Assembly: GCA_002410925.1 (NCBI GenBank)
Contig: DHPR01000013.1
Span: 140,995-175,696 of the forward strand
DNA: 34,702 nt
Reading direction: 5' to 3'
Origin: a bacterium UBP13_UBA5359
GTDB lineage: Bacteria > UBP13 > UBA5359
Part shown: in pieces, positions 3,956 to 31,021 of the stretch
How positions within the stretch are numbered: position 1 is the first letter of the stretch
Layout: each line of letters opens with the position of its first letter
Translations under genes and position numbers: made by a program
Notes under the pieces: generated by a model
Seen by the model: only the letters and a program-made list of their open reading frames with translations
Databases searched by the model: none
Told to the model about the DNA's origin: nothing

Positions 3956-3994
3956 ATTAACTATTGATCTTTGTTGGAGTACATTCCTGTGAAT

Positions 3995-4615
3995 ATGATC
4001 GAAAAAAGAAATATTCTCTTTTCGCCACCCGATATTACCGATGCGGAGATTGCAGAGGTTTTACATGCAATGAGGTCTGGCTGGATTACAACCGGACCCA
4101 GAACAAAGCTATTTGAAAGAAGAATAGCCGAATATATTGGAGCAAATAGAGCTGTTTGCCTTAATTCCGCTACTTCTGCCATGGAGCTTACTCTTCGCAT
4201 ACTTGGTATAGGCCCTGATGATGAGGTTATTACGTCTGCATATACATATACGGCAACCGCTTCTGTAATAGATCATGTCGGGGCTAAAATAGTACTTATT
4301 GATACTGCTCCCAACTCATACGAAATGGATTATTACAAGCTTGTGGATGCTATCACTGAGCGCACGAAGGTTATAATACCAGTAGATATAGGCGGTGTTA
4401 TGTGCAATTACGAGAAGATATTTGCCGCTGTTGAGAACAGAAAAAATCTTTACAAACCTGGCAGCAAAATTCAGAATTTATTTGATCGTCCTATTGTTAT
4501 GTCGGATGCAGTACATTCATTCGGTGCGCCTTGGTGTGAAAAAGAGTCGGGGGATATTGCAGATTTTACACCATTTTCTTTACTTGAGGTAAAGTTCCTA
4601 ACAGGCAGCCAATAG
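3995..4615 (+). pseudogene. Truncated DegT/DnrJ/EryC1/StrS sugar aminotransferase (N-terminal half only)
   Basis: Motifs FSPPDI, SGWITTGP, NSATSAMEL, GPDDEVIT, IIPVDIGG, DAVHSFGA. It stops just after a degenerate PLP-lysine motif (FSLLEVKFLT versus the usual FSFHAVKNLT) at about 207 aa, whereas family members are roughly twice this length. Confidence 0.85.
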
Positions 4616-12707: not shown

Positions 12708-15056
12708 ATGAAATTATCGATAATTACGATCCATTGCCAAACAAATTTCGGCTCGGTATTGCAAAGCTTTGCGCTGTATAATTTTCTTGCCAGCGCAGGT
12801 TATGACAGTGAAATCATAGATTACCGCCCGGATTATATAGACAGCAATCTGGGAAGTGGTATCAAAATTTTTATAAAAAAACTGTTACTTTCAGGAAAAC
12901 GGAAACGAGCCAAAAATCTTTATGACTCATTTATTGCGGGAAATATCAAGCTGACTCCCACAACATACAGAAGCTGTGAGGAACTTAAGAAAAATCCCCC
13001 TGAGACAGATCTTCTCATCTCCGGGAGCGATCAGCTTTGGAATTTAAATTATAAATGTGGGCATGACGACAGCTATAAACTCTTGTTCACTGATAATCTA
13101 CCGAAAATATCTTATGCGACGAGCCTTAACGCCATAGGTATGGCTGAAGAGGATACTAAGCGGCTGGCAGGTAAAATCTCCGCTTTCAGGTCTCTTTCGG
13201 TGAGAGAAAGATCCTCCGCCGAATTGCTGAGCAGAGCAATGGGCCGCAGCGTGGAGTGGGTATGCGATCCGGTCTTTCTGCTTGATAAAAATACTTATGA
13301 GAGCATGTGTAAGAAGCCTGAATACGATGATTATATACTCGTCTATCTTGCGGATAAGGGCGAACTTCTTGATGAAGCCGTAAAATATATGAAAGACAGG
13401 CTATCCTGCAAGGTAGTATTCGTAGGAGGAGCGCTGCCTAAATGTAAGTGCGATGTTCACATAAAGGGTGCCGGCCCCGAGGAAATGCTGGCGCTTATCA
13501 GACATGCAAGATTTATAATAACGGGTTCATTCCATGCCACTTCGTTTTCTCATATTTTTCATAAGGATTTCATGACTCTTATGCTTGGGGAAAACAGCGA
13601 ACGCATAAGCAGCTTGGTATCACTGACGGGTCTAAATGATCAGCTGGTAAAAAATAAAAATGATTTTGAAAGAGTAAAATGCAACATCAATTTTTCTCAT
13701 TCCGATGTGGCGCTAAAGAAATTTTCGGAAAAATCCAAAAAGTGGCTTGTTGACAATATTAACTATAGTAAGGCCGTTTATGGAAAGCGACCTTATTCCG
13801 AATTCCGAAGTGATAATATGACCCCTCTCAAAGCAGAAAGCGAATGCTGCGGATGCGGAGTCTGTGCCGACAGCTGTCCTAAAAACGCCATAAGTATGCG
13901 TGAGGATAGATACGGCTTTTTGTATCCGGCGGCAGACGAAGCTCTCTGCATCAACTGCGGACTGTGTGAAAAGATCTGTGCTCTGAAAAACAGCAGTCTT
14001 GATAATAAACCGCTTGCCGTATATGCTGGAGTTACGCGCAAAACCGACATCACGCAGTCGGCATCCGGAGGAATATTTGCAGCTCTCGCAAATGCAGTGC
14101 TTGAGGATGGCGGCTCGGTATTCGGTGCTTCGCTTTATAGCACAGGCGGTAAACTGGTCGTGAGGCATATATGCGTTAAAGACAAGTCGGAGCTTCATAA
14201 GGTGCTCGGCAGTAAATATGTGCAGAGCGAATCGACGGGTATATTCCCGGATGTAAGAGCCGAGCTCGACAGAAAGGTTGCGGTATTATTTTGCGGAACG
14301 CCGTGTCAATGCGACGCATTGAAACGGTATATCGGAATCCGTTATGAAAATCTGCTCCTTATCGATATAATATGTCACGGCGTCCCGAGCGGAGCGATGT
14401 TCAGCGCATATATACAAAGTCTTGAGAAAAAACTCAAGGGGGATATCATTGATTTTAAGTTCAGGGACAAGACCAGGGGTTGGGGCGGAACATGCAAATT
14501 TTTATATGATAAAAATAAAAAAACCAGAAGTGGATTCCTATCCCCCTCCGAGTCGTCGTATTACTCATTATTTGAAAAACGCGTTATTATGAGACCATCC
14601 TGCTATTCTTGTAAATACGCCTGTGAAAATCGTGGGGGAGACATCACCATCGGAGATTATTGGGCGGTACACGAAGAAAATCCAGAATTACTTATTGAAA
14701 ATGGCGGAAGGTTAGACGCTAAAAAGGGCGTGTCCGCCGTTATTGTAAACACAGAACATGGACTTGAAACCGTCCGTAATTATAAAGGTATATTTGATCT
14801 GTATCCGATAGAATTCGATAAGGTAAAAAAGAAAAACGAGCAGCTCTCGCATCCCTCCGCACAGCCTGATATAAGAAAAGAAATACTTGAGCTTTTTGTC
14901 GATGAAGGCTATGAAGCGCTGGAAAAACAATGGAAGAAACGCAGCGGTATCAGATATTATGTACGGTGGATAATAAACAGGATGCCAAGAAGATTAAAGA
15001 TTTTAAGCGTAAAATTGATAAAGCAGGATAATAGAAGGTGTGATAAAACCGGATGA
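12708..15056 (+). CDS. Fusion: polysaccharide pyruvyl transferase domain + 2x[4Fe-4S] ferredoxin + FrhB/FdhB-like (F420 hydrogenase beta-like) domain
   Basis: N-terminal half: NFGSVLQ, GSDQLWN, SYATS, SVRE, DPVFLL, SFHATSFS. C-terminal half: CCGCGVCADSCP, CINCGLCEKIC, SASGGIF, GSKYVQS, GTPCQ, IICHGVPS, RPSCYSC, DITIGDYW. Single uninterrupted 782-aa frame. Confidence 0.9.
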   Translation: MKLSIITIHCQTNFGSVLQSFALYNFLASAGYDSEIIDYRPDYIDSNLGSGIKIFIKKLLLSGKRKRAKNLYDSFIAGNIKLTPTTYRSCEELKKNPPETDLLISGSDQLWNLNYKCGHDDSYKLLFTDNLPKISYATSLNAIGMAEEDTKRLAGKISAFRSLSVRERSSAELLSRAMGRSVEWVCDPVFLLDKNTYESMCKKPEYDDYILVYLADKGELLDEAVKYMKDRLSCKVVFVGGALPKCKCDVHIKGAGPEEMLALIRHARFIITGSFHATSFSHIFHKDFMTLMLGENSERISSLVSLTGLNDQLVKNKNDFERVKCNINFSHSDVALKKFSEKSKKWLVDNINYSKAVYGKRPYSEFRSDNMTPLKAESECCGCGVCADSCPKNAISMREDRYGFLYPAADEALCINCGLCEKICALKNSSLDNKPLAVYAGVTRKTDITQSASGGIFAALANAVLEDGGSVFGASLYSTGGKLVVRHICVKDKSELHKVLGSKYVQSESTGIFPDVRAELDRKVAVLFCGTPCQCDALKRYIGIRYENLLLIDIICHGVPSGAMFSAYIQSLEKKLKGDIIDFKFRDKTRGWGGTCKFLYDKNKKTRSGFLSPSESSYYSLFEKRVIMRPSCYSCKYACENRGGDITIGDYWAVHEENPELLIENGGRLDAKKGVSAVIVNTEHGLETVRNYKGIFDLYPIEFDKVKKKNEQLSHPSAQPDIRKEILELFVDEGYEALEKQWKKRSGIRYYVRWIINRMPRRLKILSVKLIKQDNRRCDKTG

Positions 15057-19988: not shown

Positions 19989-21023
19989 ATGATTATGGGA
20001 CTATTTAAAGACAAAACTCTCCTCATAACCGGTGGCACCGGTACTTTTGGCAATGCCGTTTTGCAAAGGTTCATAAATACCGGCCTAAAAGAAATCCGCA
20101 TTTTTTCCCGCGATGAGAAAAAGCAGGATGATATGCGCAAGGCATATTGTAATCCCAAGCTTAAGTTTTATATTGGTGATGTACGCCATGAGGACAGCTT
20201 AAGGGATGCTATGGCCGGAGTGGATTTTATCTTCCACGCCGCTGCCTTAAAACAGGTTCCATCATGCGAATTCTTTCCGATAGAAGCGCTGAGAACCAAT
20301 GCCCTTGGAACGGAAAACGTTCTGAACGCTGCTATTAGAAACAATGTAAAAAGGGTTATCGTTCTCAGCACGGATAAGGCCGTCTATCCCATAAATGCCA
20401 TGGGCATCTCCAAGGCCATGATGGAAAAGCTGGCCGTAGCCAAATCAAGGGTAGCGGGGGAGAATACCATCATTTCTATTACCCGCTATGGCAATGTTAT
20501 GGCCAGCCGCGGCTCTGTTATCCCTCTCTTTATCAAACAGATCCAGGAGGGGCAGCCGCTGACCGTAACGGATCCGGCCATGACTCGTTTTATGATGACC
20601 ATAGAGGATGCGGTTGATCTGGTGATATATGCCTTTGAGCATGGCAGCCCCGGCGACACCTTTGTGCAGAAGGCGCCCTCCTGCACGCTGAGCACTCTGG
20701 CGCTGTCTTTGCGAAAGCTGCTTGGCGTGGATAACCCTGTAAAAGTTATCGGCGTCAGGCATGGGGAAAAGCTCTATGAAACGCTGCTTACCCGCGAGGA
20801 GATGGCCGTAGCCGAGGACATGGGCGGTTATTACAGAGTGCCGGCCGATAACCGTGATCTCAACTATTCAGTCTATTTCAGTGAGGGGAGCCATGAGGTT
20901 GCCGTCAGGGAGGATTACAATTCGCATAATACCGATCTTCTGGATGTTGGCGGCATGTGCGAATTGCTGCTTAAGCTGGATTGCGTACGACAGGCTCTTA
21001 ATGGGGAAAAAGTGGAGGTATAA
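19989..21023 (+). CDS. fnlA: UDP-GlcNAc 4,6-dehydratase/5-epimerase (FnlA/CapE/WbjB)
   Basis: TGGTGTFG, FSRDEKKQDDMR, HAAALKQVPSCEF, STDKAVYPINAMGISK, RYGNVMASRGSV, RHGEK, YNSHNT. First gene of the fnlABC triplet. Confidence 0.95.
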   Translation: MIMGLFKDKTLLITGGTGTFGNAVLQRFINTGLKEIRIFSRDEKKQDDMRKAYCNPKLKFYIGDVRHEDSLRDAMAGVDFIFHAAALKQVPSCEFFPIEALRTNALGTENVLNAAIRNNVKRVIVLSTDKAVYPINAMGISKAMMEKLAVAKSRVAGENTIISITRYGNVMASRGSVIPLFIKQIQEGQPLTVTDPAMTRFMMTIEDAVDLVIYAFEHGSPGDTFVQKAPSCTLSTLALSLRKLLGVDNPVKVIGVRHGEKLYETLLTREEMAVAEDMGGYYRVPADNRDLNYSVYFSEGSHEVAVREDYNSHNTDLLDVGGMCELLLKLDCVRQALNGEKVEV

Positions 21024-21047
21024 GTTTAGATGGGGGAAGAGGTCAGA

Positions 21048-22169
21048 ATGCGGATATTGGTGACTGGCGCTCGTGGTTTTGTGGGCAAAAATTTATGTGT
21101 TGCTTTACGTCGTTTGCCGAATCTGGAGTTGTTTGAGTATGATGTAGACAGCAGACTGCAGTATTTGGATGAAGCTCTGGCGGTTGCTGATATCATATTC
21201 CACCTGGCGGGAGTGAATCGTCCGCAGAATGCGGAGGAGTATCGGGCTGGCAACGCCGGCTTTACCGCCGAAATTTGCAAAAAGCTGCAACGGCTGGGAC
21301 GTGCTCCCAAGATAGTTATGAGTTCTTCTATTCAGGCAAAGCTCAATAACCCCTATGGAATCAGCAAAAGATTTGCCGAAGGAATTTTAAGGCGCTTTGC
21401 TGTAGATACCGGCGCTGAGTGCGTGGCATACAGGTTGAAGAACCTCTTCGGCAAATGGTGTCGGCCCAACTATAACTCGGTAACGGCAACTTTCTGTTAC
21501 AATGCGTCTCACGGTCTGCCTTTGCAGATATCGGACAGGAATAATGTGGTGGATCTTACCTATATAGATGATGCGGTACAGGCGTTTGTTATGGAGATCG
21601 AGCGACCCTCTCGCCCGGGCTTCCGCTTTGCCTCGCCGCTGGCTTCGCATGCCGTAACCTTGGGGGAACTGGCAGATACCATTAAGGGGTTTGCAGATCA
21701 TAGGGGCACGTTACAGCTACCTAATTATGAGGAGACTTTTATCCGTGCGCTCTATGCTACCTATCTCTCCTATCTGGATACCGATGATTTTGCTTATAAT
21801 TTAGATATCAAATCCGACGACAGAGGTGGTTTAGCGGAACTCATCAAAGCTCCCTGCTTTGGGCAGATATTCGTATCAAGAACAAAGCCTGGTATTACCA
21901 GAGGCAACCACTACCATCATACCAAGACTGAGAAATTTATGGTGCTTCAGGGAGAGGGTGTTATTCGTTTTCGCCGGATAGATGGAAATGAAGTGATAGA
22001 GTATCTCGTTAAGGGAGAGGAGTATCGGGTAGTGGATATCCCACCGGGATATACGCATTCCATCGAGAATGTTGGTGACAAGGAAATGGTAACTCTCTTC
22101 TGGAGCAGCGAAGTATTTGACCCTGATAGTCCTGATACATACTGGGATACAGTAATTCCGTCCAAATAA
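21048..22169 (+). CDS. fnlB: UDP-2-acetamido-2,6-dideoxy-hexulose reductase with cupin domain (FnlB/CapF/WbjC)
   Basis: TGARGFVGKNL, HLAGVNRP, SSSIQA..NPYGISK, FGKWCRPNYNS, and cupin RGNHYHHTKTEKF..IPPGYTHSIEN. Start at ATG 21048 (track: 21030). Confidence 0.95.
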   Translation: MRILVTGARGFVGKNLCVALRRLPNLELFEYDVDSRLQYLDEALAVADIIFHLAGVNRPQNAEEYRAGNAGFTAEICKKLQRLGRAPKIVMSSSIQAKLNNPYGISKRFAEGILRRFAVDTGAECVAYRLKNLFGKWCRPNYNSVTATFCYNASHGLPLQISDRNNVVDLTYIDDAVQAFVMEIERPSRPGFRFASPLASHAVTLGELADTIKGFADHRGTLQLPNYEETFIRALYATYLSYLDTDDFAYNLDIKSDDRGGLAELIKAPCFGQIFVSRTKPGITRGNHYHHTKTEKFMVLQGEGVIRFRRIDGNEVIEYLVKGEEYRVVDIPPGYTHSIENVGDKEMVTLFWSSEVFDPDSPDTYWDTVIPSK

Positions 22170-22190
22170 GCAGTTGAATTTTATAATGGA

Positions 22191-23324
22191 GTGAGTGGGA
22201 TGAAAGTAATAACTGTGGTCGGCACCCGTCCTGAGATAATACGCCTTTCACGCGTGATGGCAGCGCTGGATCGTTATACCAAGCATATTATCGTTCATAC
22301 AGGGCAAAACTACGATTATGAATTGAATGAGGTCTTTTTCAAAGAACTGGAGATTAGAAAACCTAATTATTTTCTTGAATGCGCCGGTGAAACGGCTTGC
22401 GAAACGGTAGGGCAGGTTATTGCCAGAGTCGATGAGGTGCTTGTAAAGGTTAAACCTGATGCCTTGCTTATATTGGGAGATACCAACAGTTGTTTGGCTG
22501 CATATCCTGCCAAGCGAAGAAAAATTCCTGTTTTTCATATGGAGGCTGGGAACCGTTGCTTTGATCAGCGGGTTCCTGAGGAGATCAATAGGAAGATTGT
22601 TGATCATATCAGCGATATAAACATGCCGTACAGCAGCATATCCAGAGAGTATCTATTACGGGAAGGGCTTTCGCCCGATAGAATCATCAAAACAGGGAGT
22701 CCCATGTATGAGGTGCTGCACTACTATATGCCTAAAATTATGGCATCAGACATTCTTCAGCGGCTTGATTTAAAGGAACATGATTATTTTGTTATCAGTG
22801 CGCATCGGGAGGAGAATATTGATGATCCGGTGCAATTTAATAACCTTATGGCTACCTTAAATAAGCTTGCAAATACTTACCAAAAAAGGATAATAGTTTC
22901 AACGCATCCGCGTACCCGTAAACGTATTGAGCTTGAAGATGCCAAACTAGATGACATGGTAGAGTTGGTAAAGCCTCTCGGTCTTTGCGATTATGTGAAG
23001 TTGCAGATGAATGCGAAAGCTGTTCTATCGGACAGCGGTACCATAACAGAGGAGAGCTCTATCCTGAATTTCCCGGCGTTGAATATTCGTAACGCTCATG
23101 AGCGTCCGGAGGGTATGGAAGAGGGAGCAGTGATGATGACAGGCTTGGACCCCATAAGAGTAATGGAAGGTCTAAAGATACTGGAAAGTCAGCCAAGAGG
23201 TAATGAGCGTATGCTCGATATAGTGGACGACTATTGTTGGCCTAACGTCAGTGAGAAGGTTGTGCGCATTATCATGAGCTATGCAGATTATGTAAATAGA
23301 TATGTTTGGCATAAGGGGAAATAA
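22191..23324 (+). CDS. fnlC: UDP-2-acetamido-2,6-dideoxy-L-talose 2-epimerase (FnlC/CapG/WbjD)
   Basis: [63 protein letters not shown]. The start may be ATG 22200. Confidence 0.95.
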
Positions 23325-23355
23325 TATAACAGCTAAATTAGAAGAGAGGTCTTGC

Positions 23356-24366
23356 ATGTCTAAGATACTCGTTACCGGTGCGGCCGGGTTTATAGGTTTT
23401 CATCTCAGCGGGCGCCTAATGGCGCGGGGAGATGAAGTGGTTGGCCTTGATAATATAAATGATTACTATGATGTCTCGCTTAAGGAAGCTCGGCTATCGC
23501 AGTTGAAGGAGAACAGGGCTTTCAAATTCTATAAGCTGGACCTTTCTGATTTGCCGGGACTGATGGGTGTATTCGAAAAGGAGCGGCCGGCTGTGGTGGT
23601 CAACCTGGCTGCTCAGGCTGGAGTGCGTTATTCGTTAAAGAATCCTCACACTTATGTACAGAGCAACCTGGTAGGCTTTGTAAATATTCTGGAGGGCTGC
23701 CGGTATCATAATGTCAAGCATCTGGTTTATGCTTCATCCAGTTCGGTTTATGGGGCCAACACCAGCATTCCCTTCTCTGTCCATGACAATGTGGATCACC
23801 CGGTAAGTCTCTATGCTGCCAGCAAGAAGGCCAATGAGTTGATGGCGCATACTTACAGCCATCTTTACGGTTTGCCCACTACCGGACTTCGTTTCTTCAC
23901 TGTTTACGGCCCCTGGGGCCGGCCGGATATGGCACTCTTTCTCTTTACCAAGGCTATATTGGAAGGAAAGCCGATAGATGTATTTAATTATGGTAAAATG
24001 GAAAGGGACTTTACTTATATTGACGATATTATCGAAGGAGTGGTCCGGGTAGCTGATAGAATACCGCAGCCTGATTCCAGTTGGTCTGGGGCTAATCCCG
24101 ATCCCGGCACCAGCTCTGCGCCTTACAGGGTTTATAATATCGGCAATAACCGGCCGGTGGAGCTGCTTTATTTTATCGAGACTATTGAGAATTGCCTTGG
24201 GAAGAGGGCTGAGAAGAGGCTTTTGCCGATGCAGCCCGGTGATGTTCCGGCTACCTATGCGGATGTGGATGATCTTATGCGGGATACCGGCTTCAAGCCG
24301 GATACTCCTATTGAAGTAGGAATCAGGCTATTTATAGAGTGGTATAGGGAATATTATCGGGTGTGA
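23356..24366 (+). CDS. uge: UDP-glucuronate 4-epimerase (Uge/CapI type)
   Basis: [75 protein letters not shown] before ATG 23356. Confidence 0.93.
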
Positions 24367-25990: not shown

Positions 25991-26098
25991 AGGATACAAT
26001 AATTGGGCAGGATTATTGCATCCTATTTCTGCCGGCAGTTGCCATAAAAAGAGAAAAAGGCTATTATGCATTTATATGAAAAGTATCGGAGGGTGCAC

Positions 26099-27130
26099 AT
26101 GAGAAAAGCATTGATAACCGGTATTACAGGTCAGGACGGCTCGTATCTGGCTGAGTTGCTGCTGGATAAAGGCTATGAAGTTCATGGTATCATCAGGCGT
26201 GTGTCACTCTTGAATACAGCGCGTATAGATCACCTCCATAAGGATCTGCATGAGCAGGTAAACAAGATACAGCTGCACTACGGCGATCTGAGTGATTCCA
26301 CCGGATTGCGGCGTATACTGGAGAAGGTTGAGCCGGATGAAATATATAACCTTGGGGCGCAATCGCATGTCAGGATATCTTTTGAACAGGCGGAGTATAC
26401 GGCCGATGTTGCCGGTCTGGGTGCACTGCGTCTGCTGGAAGCTATCAGAGATTATCAGGAACGCACCGGGCATGAGGTTCGTTTTTATCAGGCCGGAAGT
26501 TCGGAAATGTTTGGATCCGCCAAGCCGCCGCAAGCTCTGACGACGCCGTTTCATCCGCGCAGCCCTTATGCTGTGGCCAAGGCTTACGCTTTCTGGCAAA
26601 CTGTGAATCATCGTGAGGCATACGGGCTTTATGCCGCTAATGGCGTTCTTTTCAATCATGAATCACCTAGAAGAGGTGAAACCTTTGTTACTCGGAAAAT
26701 CACTCGCGCCGCCGGACGTATTAAAATGGGTTTGCAGAATAAGCTTTATCTGGGCAATCTGGAGGCCAGGCGTGATTGGGGCCATGCCAGGGATTACGTG
26801 GAAGCCATGCATCTGATGTTGCAGCAGGATGCTCCGGGCGATTATTTAGTGGCTACTGGTGAGTCTCATACGGTGCGTGAGTTTGCTGAGCAGGCGTTTG
26901 CTTTGCTGGGATTGGATTACAACGATTACATTGAAGTTGATCCGCGTTTCTTCCGGCCGGCGGAGGTGGATTATCTACAGGGAGATGCGGCGCTGACTTA
27001 TGAACAGCTTAACTGGCGCCCCAGGACCAGCTTTGTACAGCTTGTAAAAGAGATGGTGGAAGCGGATCTGGAACTGGCGCGTCAAGAACGCATATTGAAA
27101 GATGCCGGGCATGAGTTGATACCTATGTAG
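26099..27130 (+). CDS. gmd: GDP-mannose 4,6-dehydratase
   Basis: [75 protein letters not shown] before ATG 26099. Confidence 0.96.
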
Positions 27131-27237: not shown

Positions 27238-28137
27238 ATGATAACAAAGGCTGTTATTCCGGCGGCAGGCCTGGGCACAAGGCTGCTGCCTATTACAAAA
27301 TCCCAACCTAAAGAGATGCTTCCATTGGGAAGCAAGCCCTGTATTCAGTATATAGTGGAGGAATTGGGCAGAGCGGCTACTCAGGATATTCTCTTTGTAA
27401 CCGGTCAGAAAAAGAGGGCCATAGAGGATCACTTTGATACTGATGTGGAACTGAATCGCATGCTCAAAATGGGCAATTACGGTGATCTGCTGGATGAGAT
27501 CGATTTTGAAGCGCTGGGGCAAACCTTCTTTTATACCAGGCAGCGCTATCCCGCCGGCCTGGGTGATGCTATAAGCTACGGCAGGGATTTTACAGCGAAT
27601 GAACCCTTTTATGTGGCTTTAGGCGATTCCGTTATTTATGAGGAGCGCCCAGCCGCTCTGCTGGAGCGTATGACAGAGGTGTTCCGGGAGAGAGAGTGCT
27701 CCTTTGTCATTGCTGTGGAAGAGGTAGAGCCGGAAGATGTTCGTAAATACGGTATAGTCTCTATAGGTCCCGCAGAGGGTGATGACATTCATCCCATAAC
27801 TGATCTGGTGGAGAAGCCGCCTGTGGGTATGGCTCCCAGCAATCTGGCCATTGCCGCCAGATATATCTTTGATTCCTCTATCTATGATGCGTTACAAAGC
27901 ACGCTGCCGGACAGCCGGGGAGAGATACAGCTTACCAATGCAATACGGATCCTTCTTAAGCAAGGCAAATGTGGATATGCTGTCAGAATGACTAATGGCC
28001 AGCGCCGCTATGATATAGGCAATATGGAGAGTTACTACAAGGCTTTTTTGGACTTTGCTCTCAGAGACGAAAGATACGGATACAGTCTGCGGCAGTATAT
28101 CAATCGTAACCTGGGGAAGGAGGCCACCTGGCGATGA
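27238..28137 (+). CDS. galU: UTP:sugar-1-phosphate uridylyltransferase (GalU family)
   Basis: KAVIPAAGLGTRLLPITKSQPKEMLP, IEDHFD, GLGDAI, LGD, VEKP, GEIQLT, RYDIG. Exact substrate uncertain (see findings). Confidence 0.88.
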   Translation: MITKAVIPAAGLGTRLLPITKSQPKEMLPLGSKPCIQYIVEELGRAATQDILFVTGQKKRAIEDHFDTDVELNRMLKMGNYGDLLDEIDFEALGQTFFYTRQRYPAGLGDAISYGRDFTANEPFYVALGDSVIYEERPAALLERMTEVFRERECSFVIAVEEVEPEDVRKYGIVSIGPAEGDDIHPITDLVEKPPVGMAPSNLAIAARYIFDSSIYDALQSTLPDSRGEIQLTNAIRILLKQGKCGYAVRMTNGQRRYDIGNMESYYKAFLDFALRDERYGYSLRQYINRNLGKEATWR

Positions 28138-29150
28138 TATGTGCCAGTGCCCCGGGAAGAGCAGGTATAATAGGCAACCCTACGGATGGATATGGAGGAA
28201 CCCTGATTTCCTGCGCCATAGATCGCCGGGCTAAAGTCACGCTGGCTGAAGCTGAAAAGACTGTTATCGAGAATGAAGGCCTGCAGTGTGCGTTGCATAT
28301 ACCGGATGATTACCGTAACAGGGGCGATGCCTTTGATATTGCCAGATCCGTGTTGCGTTTTTTCAACCTTTATGATAGAAAGCTGCATATAACCATCACC
28401 ACCGATATTCCGAAGCAGGCGGGGTTGGCCGGCTCTACAGCCGTCTTATCGGCTCTTCTCAGAGCCGTAATGGCTTATCTGGATATCAAAATCAATAATT
28501 ACATGTTTGCAGAGATAAATAGATTTGTAGAACTCAACCACATGAAGATGCAGTGCGGTTATCAGGATGCTTATATGACTACTTTCGGCGGGTTGAACTA
28601 TCTGGATTTTCGCGGCAAGGAGCATTACCGTGAATGGGATGAGGAGGATTACGGTACGGTTGAGCCTTTGGGTGAAAGGGTTGGACGGCTGCCCTTTGTT
28701 ATTGCCCATACCGGAGTCAGCCATGTCTCCGGAGATGTGCATCGTCCCTTGCGTGAGCGCTGGATGGAGGGTGATCCGGCCGTAATGAGTGCGTATAACA
28801 GAATTGCGGCTATAGCACGCGAGGGTAAGAAAGCCTTGCTGGAAGAGAATTGGGAACGCCTGGCAGAGCTCATGACAGAGAATCATGAGCTGCAGGATAG
28901 GCTGAGCCCGTCAGGGCAGGAGGTTGCGCGGCTGATAATTGCAGCCATGAATGCCGGCGCTTCAGCCGCAAAGCTGGCCGGAGCCGGCGGAGGGGGCACG
29001 GTTATAGCTCTTACCTTTGATGCGGAGAGAACGCTTGCCGCTATGTCTGAGGCAGGAGCGGCTGAATTTGTTGGGCTGGCTCCTCTGGCTGAGGGAGCGG
29101 TACTTGTAAGCAAGGATACTGATTATTCCATATTTAGCGCCTTAGGCTAA
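28134..29150 (+). CDS. GHMP-family sugar kinase, glucuronokinase-like
   Basis: APGRAGIIGNPTD (motif I), IPKQAGLAGSTA (motif II), CGYQD, AKLAGAGGGG (motif III). Start overlaps the galU stop (ATGA). Confidence 0.88.
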   Translation: MICASAPGRAGIIGNPTDGYGGTLISCAIDRRAKVTLAEAEKTVIENEGLQCALHIPDDYRNRGDAFDIARSVLRFFNLYDRKLHITITTDIPKQAGLAGSTAVLSALLRAVMAYLDIKINNYMFAEINRFVELNHMKMQCGYQDAYMTTFGGLNYLDFRGKEHYREWDEEDYGTVEPLGERVGRLPFVIAHTGVSHVSGDVHRPLRERWMEGDPAVMSAYNRIAAIAREGKKALLEENWERLAELMTENHELQDRLSPSGQEVARLIIAAMNAGASAAKLAGAGGGGTVIALTFDAERTLAAMSEAGAAEFVGLAPLAEGAVLVSKDTDYSIFSALG

Positions 29151-29215: not shown

Positions 29216-31021
29216 TTGGTGGCCAAAACAAAAGAGCGTGAATCTGCTTTTGCAGGCTTGCAGAATATGCAAGGGCATGATAAAGCATCTACGCTGGATA
29301 CATTGCTCTCTCCGCGCGCCAGAAAACTGATCATCCTTATCTTAACTTTATTTCCCGCTGTGACCGTTTTCTTTTTTATAAAATCCTTTGGAGCCAATGT
29401 GGCCTTTGGTGATCAATGGGATTTTGTTCCCTTTCTGGAGAAGATGTTTACCGGTCACCTGAGTTTCAGTGATTTCTTTGCTCAGCATAATGAGCACCGT
29501 CTGATATTACCTCGCGCCGTAATGGCTCTTCTGGCCTTGCTGACACATTACAATAATGTGGCAGAGATGTATTTCGGTTTATTTGTTATGTGCCTGACAG
29601 GATATATATTCTTCCTTATCTACAGGCGGGCGTTAGGAGTGAGTGAAGCCGCTCTTTGGGCATTTATTCCCATCAGCCTCCTTGTTTTCAGCTTGAAGCA
29701 GAGCGGCAATATTCTTTGGGGCTGGCAAATTCAAATATTCATGCTGACGTTCTTCTTTTTGGCAACGGTATATTTAATAGATACGCTCGACGGCTCCTGG
29801 AAACGTTTACTGCTGGCTGTTGCTTCTGCCATAGGAACAACATTCTCCTTTGCCAATGGTATGCTGGCCTGGCCTGTCTGCCTGTTGCAATTATTGCTGG
29901 AAGGCAGATCTGCTGAAGCAGAGAGGAAGGGATTTTATTATAAAGCAGCGTTAATCTGGGGTCTTGCTAGCGTTGCTGTTTGCCTGGTATATTTTCATGG
30001 CTATGTCAAGCCAACGCAACATCCCAGTTTACTGGCTGTTCTGCAAAACCCTTTTGATTTCATCAGCTATGTTCTGGGCTCTGTAGGAGTGCCTCTGGCT
30101 ATAGGGACATTTGTCCTTCCTATCGGTGCGGTATTATTATTGGGTTATCTATTCCTGATACCGTATTACTTTAAATCTTACTCTGCATCAAGGACACGAA
30201 TCGTATTACCTTTGATTCTCTTTTCTCTGATCTCATCACTGGTTATGGCCGTAGGCAGATCGGGTTTTGGGCCTGAACAGGCTCTGGCTTCACGCTATAT
30301 TACCATAACGTATATAGGCATAGCCGGATTGTATATGGCGCTCTTTTCGCTTGTAAGAGAGAAGAAGCGTTTCAGTTCTTTTGCTTACAGCCTTTTTCTT
30401 TTATATATTATATTGAGCATGGCTATAGGGTATAATACTACGCTTAAAATCATTGCGGCAGAAACTGCGAACAGAGATTTGCTCTCCTATTGTATGAAGA
30501 ATTATCGCTACCAAAGCGATAGTATGCTTACGGTATGCTGTTCAATACCAGGGGCTGTTATATCCAGGGCTCCCATTTTGGAGCAATACCATCTTAACGT
30601 ATTTAATGAACCCTTTGTTGAGTTGCCTGAAATATGTAATGGCTCTGCCGGCTTGTTCTGCGCAGATACCTTTAATGATCGCTCTCTTACTGATATAGGT
30701 AAGGATGTGCTTATCGTTGATGAAGATATCGAAAATATACAGATAATCGGCTGGGCTATAGATGAAAAGATGTGCAGCTATGCCGGCGGGGTTTATGTGA
30801 CAATTGACGACCGTATTGATATACCTGCATTGTACGGACGGTATAGAGAGGATGTAGCGCAAGCGCTTGGTGATAAAAATTATGCTTGCTCCGGTTTTGT
30901 GGCGTTATTCTCCTCAAAAGTAGCGGGCAAGGGCAGGCACACATTATCCTTTAAGGTTATCGGGGCTGACGGGAAGGGATATTATGTGCCGAAGAAGAAG
31001 ATTATGGTGGATATCTTGTAA
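29216..31021 (+). CDS. Polytopic membrane protein, putative GT-C-like transferase with a C-terminal soluble beta-rich domain
   Basis: First TM helix followed by GDQWD and AQHNEHR in the first external loop, about ten further TM segments, an SRY motif, then a soluble domain with GWAID..REDVA..SGF. Start TTG 29216 or GTG 29219. Function is inference. Confidence 0.65.
   Translation: MVAKTKERESAFAGLQNMQGHDKASTLDTLLSPRARKLIILILTLFPAVTVFFFIKSFGANVAFGDQWDFVPFLEKMFTGHLSFSDFFAQHNEHRLILPRAVMALLALLTHYNNVAEMYFGLFVMCLTGYIFFLIYRRALGVSEAALWAFIPISLLVFSLKQSGNILWGWQIQIFMLTFFFLATVYLIDTLDGSWKRLLLAVASAIGTTFSFANGMLAWPVCLLQLLLEGRSAEAERKGFYYKAALIWGLASVAVCLVYFHGYVKPTQHPSLLAVLQNPFDFISYVLGSVGVPLAIGTFVLPIGAVLLLGYLFLIPYYFKSYSASRTRIVLPLILFSLISSLVMAVGRSGFGPEQALASRYITITYIGIAGLYMALFSLVREKKRFSSFAYSLFLLYIILSMAIGYNTTLKIIAAETANRDLLSYCMKNYRYQSDSMLTVCCSIPGAVISRAPILEQYHLNVFNEPFVELPEICNGSAGLFCADTFNDRSLTDIGKDVLIVDEDIENIQIIGWAIDEKMCSYAGGVYVTIDDRIDIPALYGRYREDVAQALGDKNYACSGFVALFSSKVAGKGRHTLSFKVIGADGKGYYVPKKKIMVDIL

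Follow-up and report, generated by a model that had tools for sequence, protein, structure and literature searches.

How do bacteria obtain UDP (uridine diphosphate)-glucuronate? To our knowledge, the textbook view is that they make it only by oxidizing UDP-glucose. A pair of genes from the bacterium UBP13_UBA5359 (contig DHPR01000013.1) suggests that there may be a second way. The pair lies at positions 27,238 to 29,150 of a stretch of 34,702 nucleotides, here called the window, and joins a gene for a GalU-like pyrophosphorylase to a gene for a sugar kinase of the GHMP family. An earlier interpretation, made from the letters of the DNA and here called the sequence-only reading, proposed that the two proteins activate free glucuronate directly to a UDP-uronate. 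The question is whether they do and, if not, what else such a pair might be for.

The answer favored here is that the pair would encode a hexuronate-1-kinase, probably acting on glucuronate, that feeds a dual-purpose UDP-sugar pyrophosphorylase, the two making up a self-contained sugar-activation module. Taken as a whole, this answer stands about evenly between right and wrong, and its parts are not equally well placed. That the two enzymes act in sequence is quite probable; that the substrate is a hexuronate is probable, to a lesser degree; that it is D-glucuronate in particular falls somewhat short of even.

The gene pair and the proposed route

Two genes make up the pair, and two short features mark their junction.

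27238-28137, + strand: GalU-family UTP:sugar-1-phosphate uridylyltransferase, kinase-linked variant, 299 residues (open reading frame, Pfam, NCBIfam and PDB match)
28134-29150, + strand: GHMP sugar kinase of the group called clade A below, 338 residues (open reading frame, family scans, tree)
28134-28137, + strand: stop/start overlap ATGA, where the ATG of the kinase gene lies on the TGA of the GalU-like gene (sequence)
28117-28123, + strand: AAGGAGG, resembling a ribosome-binding site, 10 nucleotides 5' of the kinase ATG (read from the sequence)

The sequence-only reading had noticed the ATGA overlap, and the two open reading frames confirm it. Such an overlap implies that the GalU-like gene and the kinase gene are translationally coupled.

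In the proposed route, the GHMP kinase would phosphorylate a free hexuronic acid at C1, most likely D-glucuronate, possibly galacturonate. The GalU variant, translated together with the kinase, would then join the sugar-1-phosphate to uridine monophosphate from uridine triphosphate (UTP), giving a UDP-uronate. This, in turn, would feed an enzyme resembling UDP-glucuronate 4-epimerase and the glycosyltransferases of the polysaccharide locus in which the pair lies. The GalU variant would probably also make UDP-glucose for the dehydrogenase route, a dual-purpose role proposed because the genome has no other GalU. The module would open a salvage way into the UDP-uronate pool, beside the de novo route that fills the same pool, and would not replace that route.

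The kinase and its relatives

That the second gene encodes a GHMP kinase is easily seen. Its product matches GHMP_kinases_N (PF00288, 46.8 bits) and GHMP_kinases_C (PF08544, 52.9 bits), both above their cut-offs. The six motifs quoted by the sequence-only reading are all found in it, at residues 8-18, 92-101, 142-145, 152-164, 199-214 and 230-236. Those of most use for assigning the kinase, together with a further GHMP motif, are these.

28155-28187, + strand: N-terminal motif GRAGIIGNPTD, at the place of the GEHxDY sugar-binding loop of GalK (matches a Lilium peptide in PMC2823444)
28407-28436, + strand: GHMP motif II, IPKQAGLAGS, the phosphate-binding loop (alignment)
28557-28568, + strand: GYQD with the conserved Asp145 (Asp in 79-100% of every group compared)
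28728-28775, + strand: the block SGDVHRPLRERWMEGD, residues 199-214 (R209 and G213 common to glucuronokinases, uncommon in the rows of mevalonate kinase, HddA and GalK)
28971-28997, + strand: GHMP motif III, KLAGAGGGG (alignment)

Asp145 we take to be the catalytic base, by analogy with other GHMP kinases. Two of the blocks, GNP[ST]D and SGxVHxxxRxRW, are shared by the window kinase, a plant protein named "glucuronokinase 1 [Ziziphus jujuba]" (P0252) and glucuronokinase peptides from Lilium. The plant motifs that the sequence-only reading gave for comparison agree with the Ziziphus protein and with two of the Lilium peptides (PMC2823444).

Which proteins, then, are closest? An exhaustive search of 1.84 billion representative sequences gave 6833 matches to the kinase at E <=0.001, and names were looked up for 30 of the best 150. 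The best named match among these 30 is a carp "glucuronokinase with putative uridyl pyrophosphorylase" (P0223, E 9e-27); the Ziziphus protein matches at E 2.8e-23. Several of the other named matches are fusions of 620-660 residues, from fungi or other eukaryotes where the organism is given, and one planctomycete protein carries the NCBI name glucuronokinase. Only this search brought the eukaryotic fusions to the surface; one directed at longer, fused relatives of the kinase returned a single protein, of the fucokinase type. By BLASTP, the window kinase is 30% identical to the plant enzyme GlcAK1 (112 bits over 330 residues) and to the fish protein GKUP (135 bits). By these measures, the plant and fish glucuronokinases are the closest characterized relatives of the window kinase.

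Profiles built for the purpose point the same way. The window kinase scores 216 bits on a profile of 56 sequences from the glucuronokinase clade and 163 bits on one of seven eukaryotic glucuronokinases, compared with 135 bits on a profile of four HddA-like kinases and 93 bits on one of four mevalonate kinases. On two of these custom profiles, the comparison members themselves score 358-538 bits.

The place of the kinase in the tree

A tree was built to place the kinase among its relatives. The starting set held 151 rows: the window kinase, 34 kinases from genome loci, the kinase domains of 8 named proteins (eukaryotic or fused), 95 representatives and 13 outgroups. The 95 were taken from the other 142 representative matches, 47 having been dropped because their length fell outside 300-470 residues. 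The outgroups comprised four mevalonate kinases above the TIGR00549 cut-off, four HddA-like and two GalK-like kinases, the genome's own GalK and IspE, and a fucokinase domain; a search of plasmids for named outgroups yielded no mevalonate kinase. After a FastTree overview of all 151 rows, IQ-TREE was run under a mixture model on 81 rows picked by hand to span all clades. IspE, which had a long branch, was omitted from this more careful tree.

In the careful tree, all of the eukaryotic glucuronokinases fall into one clade of 28 rows (support 100/98) together with a set of bacterial proteins, here called clade B. The window kinase belongs to another clade, clade A, of 29 rows (96/90). Membership of the kinase in the glucuronokinase group proper is therefore not supported. 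Clades A and B join three other lineages, also uncharacterized, in a five-way polytomy. The grouping with HddA, GalK or mevalonate kinase that would have spoken against a uronate kinase is absent from the tree. The rows for mevalonate kinase, GalK-like, HddA-like and Fkp proteins lie across another branch from the window kinase (68/92), with the four cut-off-passing mevalonate kinases in a clade of their own (100/98) and the HddA-like and GalK-like rows likewise in their own supported clades. The glucuronokinase clade has 52 positions conserved at >=85%, and clade A shares 28 of them, including GNPxD, Q144/D145 and R209.

Some of the outgroup loci deserve mention in their own right. At one (L065, 1486-3344), a GEHQDY-type kinase gene overlaps an open reading frame for a 274-residue protein like a nucleotidyltransferase. 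Two of the three HddA-like GGGTD kinases (L070 and L071, among outgroups L070-L072) adjoin open reading frames whose N-termini look like those of nucleotidyltransferases.

Conservation of the pair

The sequence-only reading had proposed that the pairing be sought across genomes, and there it holds. A scan of genome contigs with the single protein found seven loci, five of which have a GalU-like gene directly upstream; in the two that lack one, the kinases are the least similar of the set (39% and 29% identity). Among 301 sampled Planctomycetota genomes, 69 had a kinase match at E <=1e-15. In the strong matches among these (46-53% identity), a GalU-like gene lies directly upstream in 10 of 10 loci, cut by the contig end in two. 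One Gemmatimonas and one Latescibacterota genome carry the same pair, which is thus present in all 12 of the strong-match loci found outside the window's phylum. The next 20 planctomycete loci (26-33% identity, of the clade-B type) have an adjacent GalU-like gene in five cases. As for the window's own lineage, its phylum-level group in the genome set consists of three genomes of one genus, and all three carry the pair.

Metagenomes gave many more examples. A scan with the clade-A alignment returned at least 598 pattern matches, and 553 among the matches listed encode relatives; the best 80 loci, which are not mutually independent, were kept. A GalU-like gene lies directly upstream on the same strand in 67 of these 80. 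The remaining 13 include seven with less than 260 nucleotides of upstream DNA and four without a GalU-like gene in the available flanks; at one further locus a nucleotidyltransferase fragment lies upstream and a GalU-like gene downstream, and at another the GalU-like gene is 1.15 kb upstream. Kinase and GalU are adjacent in at least four phyla, and the pairing is strongly conserved, far beyond chance. Clade A is common in metagenomes, and its members are annotated "mevalonate kinase" or left without a name.

One metagenome locus (L147, 11-4056) presents a clade-A kinase without a GalU neighbor, following three ATP-grasp genes of the YheC/YheD type.

The GalU-like partner

The partner is of the GalU family, though not a typical member. 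It matches NTP_transferase (PF00483) at 105.8 bits and TIGR01099 at 278.1 bits, below the cut-off of 326.8; on the same model, the linked GalUs (those encoded beside the kinase) from ten clade-A genomes of other phyla score 261-290 bits. Its best PDB match is Bacillus subtilis YngB (209 bits).

An alignment was made of the window protein, ten clade-A-linked and five clade-B-linked GalUs, Escherichia coli GalU, and 30 bacterial GalUs chosen one per family. The residues that bind uridine, phosphate and Mg (A16, G17, K31, E32, Q109, G114, D137, E201 and K202 in E. coli numbering, from the list of binding residues in PMC11796359) are identical in the window protein and, indeed, throughout the alignment. 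The sugar pocket is another matter. The Asp that follows the Mg-binding Asp (D131 in the Pseudomonas aeruginosa UDP-glucose pyrophosphorylase, D134 in YngB) contacts the glucose moiety (PMC11796359; PMC7961091), and two sites in the window protein concern us here.

27625-27630, + strand: codons for Asp130-Ser131 (E. coli 137/138); Asp130 is the Mg ligand, and Ser131 replaces the glucose-contacting Asp (alignment; PMC11796359; PMC7961091)
27853-27855, + strand: codon for Ala206 (E. coli 215, beside the backbone glucose contact at 214) (alignment)

Of the 30 sampled GalUs, 29 have Asp at E. coli position 138, and each of the 16 linked ones has Ser or Thr. The single sampled exception, with Thr, proved to adjoin a clade-B kinase showing 47% identity with plant glucuronokinase, so that the final split is Ser/Thr in 17 of 17 linked proteins and Asp in 29 of 29 unlinked ones. 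In the metagenomes, 62 linked GalUs have Ser (56), Thr (3) or Ala (3) here, and none has Asp; overall, Asp occurs in 0 of 79 linked GalUs. At position 215, all 16 linked GalUs and 64 of 67 from metagenomes have Ala, and unlinked ones have mostly Ile or Val. A tree of the same proteins places the 17 linked GalUs on one side of a branch with an SH-aLRT (approximate likelihood ratio test) support of 93, around a core of 14 rows (11 clade-A-linked, 3 clade-B-linked) supported at 100. Judged by pocket and tree, the kinase-linked GalUs form a subgroup of their own.

The linked GalU is also the only GalU-family match (E <=1e-30) in the window genome, in each of 10 other clade-A genomes and in four of five clade-B-linked ones. 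The other nucleotidyltransferases of the window genome are RmlA and two ManC-like proteins. Because it is the genome's only GalU-family protein, the GalU-like protein likely makes UDP-glucose from glucose-1-phosphate; it is probably not an enzyme dedicated to glucuronate-1-phosphate.

Neighbors in relatives

Does the company that the pair keeps indicate its substrate? Across 13 clade-A loci, no gene is conserved beyond the pair itself. Recurrent settings do appear, however, among the best 80 metagenome loci. Of the 42 loci with at least 2 kb of upstream DNA, 7 have a homolog of the window's UDP-glucuronate-epimerase-like gene (58-67% identity to it) upstream of the pair, and these 7 are the window's closest relatives outside the genus, their kinases being 58-64% identical. 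A gene of the UDP-glucose dehydrogenase family lies beside the pair in four loci, directly upstream in three and downstream in one; the one such protein scanned scored 566 bits on NF011631, below the cut-off.

In six loci of another lineage, a gene for UxaE (tagaturonate epimerase, 487 bits) comes first in a run with the GalU-like gene and then the kinase gene. A short-chain dehydrogenase/reductase (SDR) of the D-mannonate oxidoreductase type follows in five of the six (389 bits in the one scanned, cut-off 281), and a LarA-like putative hexonate epimerase lies further downstream in both of the loci scanned. Partial copies of this run occur in further loci. In this run, genes of uronate catabolism stand in one string with those for activating a sugar. 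In a third setting, which is uninformative, the pair has a xylose-isomerase-like TIM-barrel gene on one side and, in some loci, rnpA on the other. Taken together, the neighbors in relatives point to uronic acids.

The UxaE-type run has an operon-like arrangement (L182, 333-6876; also L187, L169, L186, L189 and L193), in which UxaE, the GalU-like protein, the clade-A kinase and the D-mannonate oxidoreductase are followed by a protein of about 296 residues without a name and then by the LarA-like protein.

Weighing the alternatives

A good deal speaks against the pair as a uronate module, and it is best set out together. The kinase lies outside the clade that holds the known glucuronokinases, and the branch that sets the ingroup apart from mevalonate kinase, HddA and GalK is weak, at 68/92. 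Three residues that are nearly invariant in the glucuronokinase clade, R146, Q149 and R254 in window numbering (98%, 98% and 100%), are replaced in the window kinase by Ala, Thr and Gln, and they are not kept in clade A generally. The separate clade and the lost arginines leave room for another uronate or another sugar. On the side of the partner, Val occupies position 138 in the active GalUs of E. coli and Klebsiella; because the E. coli protein with Val is a normal UDP-glucose enzyme, loss of the Asp is no proof of a new specificity. The sole-GalU status seen in 11 of 11 clade-A genomes may simply mean that the linked protein is the housekeeping enzyme. A Rosetta-stone link, which would have tied the window GalU to the pyrophosphorylase domain of the fish fusion, was rejected at 26 bits.

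The genome raises its own objections. The sequence-only reading had taken the lack of a UDP-glucose dehydrogenase (Ugd) near the pair as a fit to salvage. The window does indeed contain no nucleoside diphosphate (NDP)-sugar dehydrogenase, but the argument fails at the level of the genome, where contig C1 encodes a TuaD-like UDP-glucose dehydrogenase. This protein, the only match above the family cut-off, scores 558 bits on the TuaD model (cut-off 700) and 462 bits on the NDP-sugar dehydrogenase model (cut-off 189.8). With a dehydrogenase of its own, the genome does not need salvage to obtain UDP-glucuronate. The same holds elsewhere: an NDP-sugar dehydrogenase above the family cut-off is present in five of five clade-A planctomycete genomes tested. 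Further, UxaC was not found in the window genome, nor was any obvious source of uronate; a search for MIOX gave no match there, a result that is uninformative since the control for the search was silent in all control genomes. Because the window genome and the clade-A planctomycete genomes tested carry such a dehydrogenase, the module would accompany the dehydrogenase route, not replace it.

The kinase might, of course, act by the same logic on something that is not a hexuronate, such as a neutral hexose, a pentose or a 6-modified hexose, with clade A having diverged to take a new substrate before a pyrophosphorylase that works as proposed. The separate clade, the loss of R146, Q149 and R254, and the lack of any neighbor conserved beyond the pair in 13 loci all suit this explanation, and since the Arabidopsis glucuronokinase is reported to be strictly specific (PMC2823444), a sister clade need not share its substrate. 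We nevertheless consider it unlikely. The partner GalU carries the pocket signature of the GalUs linked to true glucuronokinase orthologs and groups with them; the neighbors that recur are UxaE, D-mannonate oxidoreductase, UDP-glucose dehydrogenase and the UDP-glucuronate-epimerase-like gene; and for galactose the genome already has GalK and GalT. A different objection would dissolve the module altogether, by making the GalU-like gene the housekeeping UDP-glucose pyrophosphorylase and the kinase an uncoupled neighbor that handles a non-sugar metabolite or regulates GalU, their adjacency reflecting co-regulation only. Here one can point to a protein that keeps all catalytic and UTP-binding residues and is the only GalU of its genome in 11 of 11 cases. 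One can point, too, to a genome that needs UDP-glucose because it has a UDP-glucose dehydrogenase, GalE, and GalK with GalT, and to a kinase whose best NCBIfam match is the mevalonate kinase model (108 bits). Co-regulation alone sits poorly, however, with adjacency in at least four phyla and in 67 of the best 80 metagenome loci, with genes that overlap, with a glucose-contacting Asp that among the sampled GalUs is lost only in kinase-linked ones, and with the independent fusion of kinase and pyrophosphorylase in eukaryotes, where the kinase domain of the fish protein is active (PMC3938481). This explanation is accordingly improbable.

There is finally the kinase's identity as automatic annotation would have it, since relatives are named "mevalonate kinase" or "galactokinase/mevalonate kinase-like predicted kinase." Its best PDB sequence matches are a mevalonate kinase (73 bits) and an HddA-type kinase (69 bits), and none of the chains is named glucuronokinase. 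Each identity was tried and rejected. Against mevalonate kinase stand a score of 108 bits on TIGR00549, whose cut-off is 163, and a place in the tree apart from the true mevalonate kinases; against HddA, 73 bits on NF049969 (cut-off 600), GNPTD in place of GGG[TS]D, a separate clade, and no GmhA, GmhB or HddC partner in family scans of the window; against galactokinase, 44.6 bits on TIGR00131 (cut-off 226.65; 44.6-82 bits over the GalK models, whose cut-offs run from 226.65 to 509) and the absence of GEHxDY. The genome, moreover, has IspE of the non-mevalonate route and, next to GalT and away from the pair, a GalK of its own with GEHTDY. That the kinase is any of these three is very improbable.

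One other GHMP protein in the genome may be recorded here. It has 629 residues (contig C19, 15843-19061; L022, 937-2826), shows a weak galactokinase match (79 bits on TIGR00131), and is the fourth and last GHMP_kinases_N match in the genome.

What favors glucuronate is that the sole characterized relatives of the kinase are specific for glucuronate and that the partner GalU is the same variant as that found with true glucuronokinase orthologs. The claim that the pair activates glucuronate directly to a UDP-uronate survives in part. The closest family, the pairing and the context agree with it; the position of the kinase outside the glucuronokinase clade does not and, because the three near-invariant residues are missing, its specificity for glucuronate is something that we infer.

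Comparison with known systems

The plant glucuronokinases (Arabidopsis GlcAK1, At3g01640, and the Lilium enzyme; EC 2.7.1.43) are GHMP kinases with GNP[ST]D, GxQD and SGxVHxxxRxRW, as is the window kinase, and in plants, too, a kinase is followed by a pyrophosphorylase to give a UDP-sugar, the plant partner being UDP-sugar pyrophosphorylase (PMC2823444). The window kinase differs in belonging to another clade and in lacking R146, Q149 and R254. In place of the eukaryotic UDP-sugar pyrophosphorylase, it has as its partner a short bacterial GalU from the adjoining gene.

In the zebrafish protein DrGKUP, a kinase of the glucuronokinase family is likewise physically coupled to a short nucleotidyltransferase of bacterial type, in the kind of eukaryotic fusion that PMC3938481 describes. 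There, the two are one polypeptide with the transferase at the N-terminus, and the pyrophosphorylase activity is given in that paper as extremely low or unconfirmed. The window system consists of two overlapping genes, and its GalU is no relative of the fish transferase domain.

Nearer at hand are the bacterial pairs of clade-B glucuronokinase and GalU, themselves uncharacterized. Several loci show the same pair in the same order, with a GalU of the same subgroup (Ser/Thr138 and Ala215) that is usually the only one in the genome. The clade-B kinases have about 47% identity with plant glucuronokinase and 26-33% with the window kinase, and in the planctomycete sample their adjacency to GalU (5 of 20 loci) is looser than that of clade A (10 of 10).

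The same logic, in which a GHMP anomeric or heptose kinase precedes nucleotidyl transfer, is found in Fkp (fucokinase/GDP-fucose pyrophosphorylase), HddA/HddC and GalK/GalT. These differ from the window pair in their kinase clades and in their sugars. Fkp and HddC, further, use guanosine diphosphate (GDP), unlike the UDP route considered here.

The polysaccharide locus around the pair

The window as a whole is a large polysaccharide locus, with export genes of the Wza/Wzc type, glycosyltransferases and flippases; GalE and VanZ genes lie within it as well. At 19989-23324 it encodes an FnlA-like dehydratase (below the FnlA cut-off), a WbcJ-like reductase and a 2-epimerase of the WecB type, a set that resembles FnlA/B/C. 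Two genes upstream of the pair need closer attention.

23302-24366, + strand: SDR resembling UDP-glucuronate 4-epimerase (PDB 5u4q, 497 bits; Bacillus cereus UDP-glucuronate 4-epimerase entries 6zl6/6zla, 154 bits)
26066-27130, + strand: GDP-mannose 4,6-dehydratase (TIGR01472, 517.5 bits, above the cut-off of 415)

The SDR is a probable consumer of UDP-glucuronate in the same polysaccharide locus. The dehydratase gene lies 107 nucleotides upstream of the pair on the same strand and may share its transcript; it is kept beside the pair in the same genus only, and is not part of the conserved module. Promoter-like sites in the window show no excess (9, against 10.5 expected from shuffling). Terminator-like sites number 11 against 6.2 expected (standard deviation 2.8), and no operon boundary is claimed from them.

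Directly 3' of the kinase gene (29216-31021, + strand) lies a gene for a multi-pass membrane protein of 601 residues, without a match in Pfam or NCBIfam. Only within the genus does the gene keep this place behind the pair (L005 and L006, at 85% and 72% identity); its product may serve the polysaccharide locus as a polymerase or a GT-C-like enzyme. Elsewhere in the window, a DegT/DnrJ/EryC1 aminotransferase open reading frame of 214 residues (3971-4615, + strand) covers positions 2-177 of a 360-position profile and looks truncated or split. A protein of 782 residues (12708-15056, + strand) combines polysaccharide pyruvyl transferase, 4Fe-4S dicluster and FrhB/FdhB C-terminal domains.

What the pair may mean

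The sequence-only reading also called this a little-described bacterial route. Among the titles listed by searches of the literature, there is no biochemical study of a bacterial glucuronokinase. Bacterial homologs were, however, noted in 2009 by a paper that places glucuronokinase genes in "a few bacteria" (PMC2823444). What is new here is a second and widespread kinase clade, its tighter linkage to GalU, and the pocket signature in the partner.

A broader view may be offered tentatively, as one that we would sooner expect to fail in some respect than to hold. Here, the clade-A kinases would be an unrecognized bacterial family of hexuronate-1-kinases, perhaps with another preference (galacturonate, or both epimers). 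The GalU with Ser/Thr138 and Ala215 would be the bacterial counterpart of the broad-range UDP-sugar pyrophosphorylase of plants, serving both de novo synthesis (glucose-1-phosphate to UDP-glucose, followed by oxidation by UDP-glucose dehydrogenase) and salvage (uronate-1-phosphate to UDP-uronate). The module would then stand at the branch between burning uronic acids and re-using them.

One-pot synthesis of UDP-glucuronate currently relies on the Arabidopsis kinase (PMC6604206), and the route could supply compact bacterial enzymes for this purpose. If the changes in the pocket widen the range of the partner, many genes annotated "GalU" would encode broad-range UDP-sugar enzymes. And if the proposed route is correct, bacteria could re-use the uronic acids that plant, algal or microbial polymers release, at no cost in NAD+.

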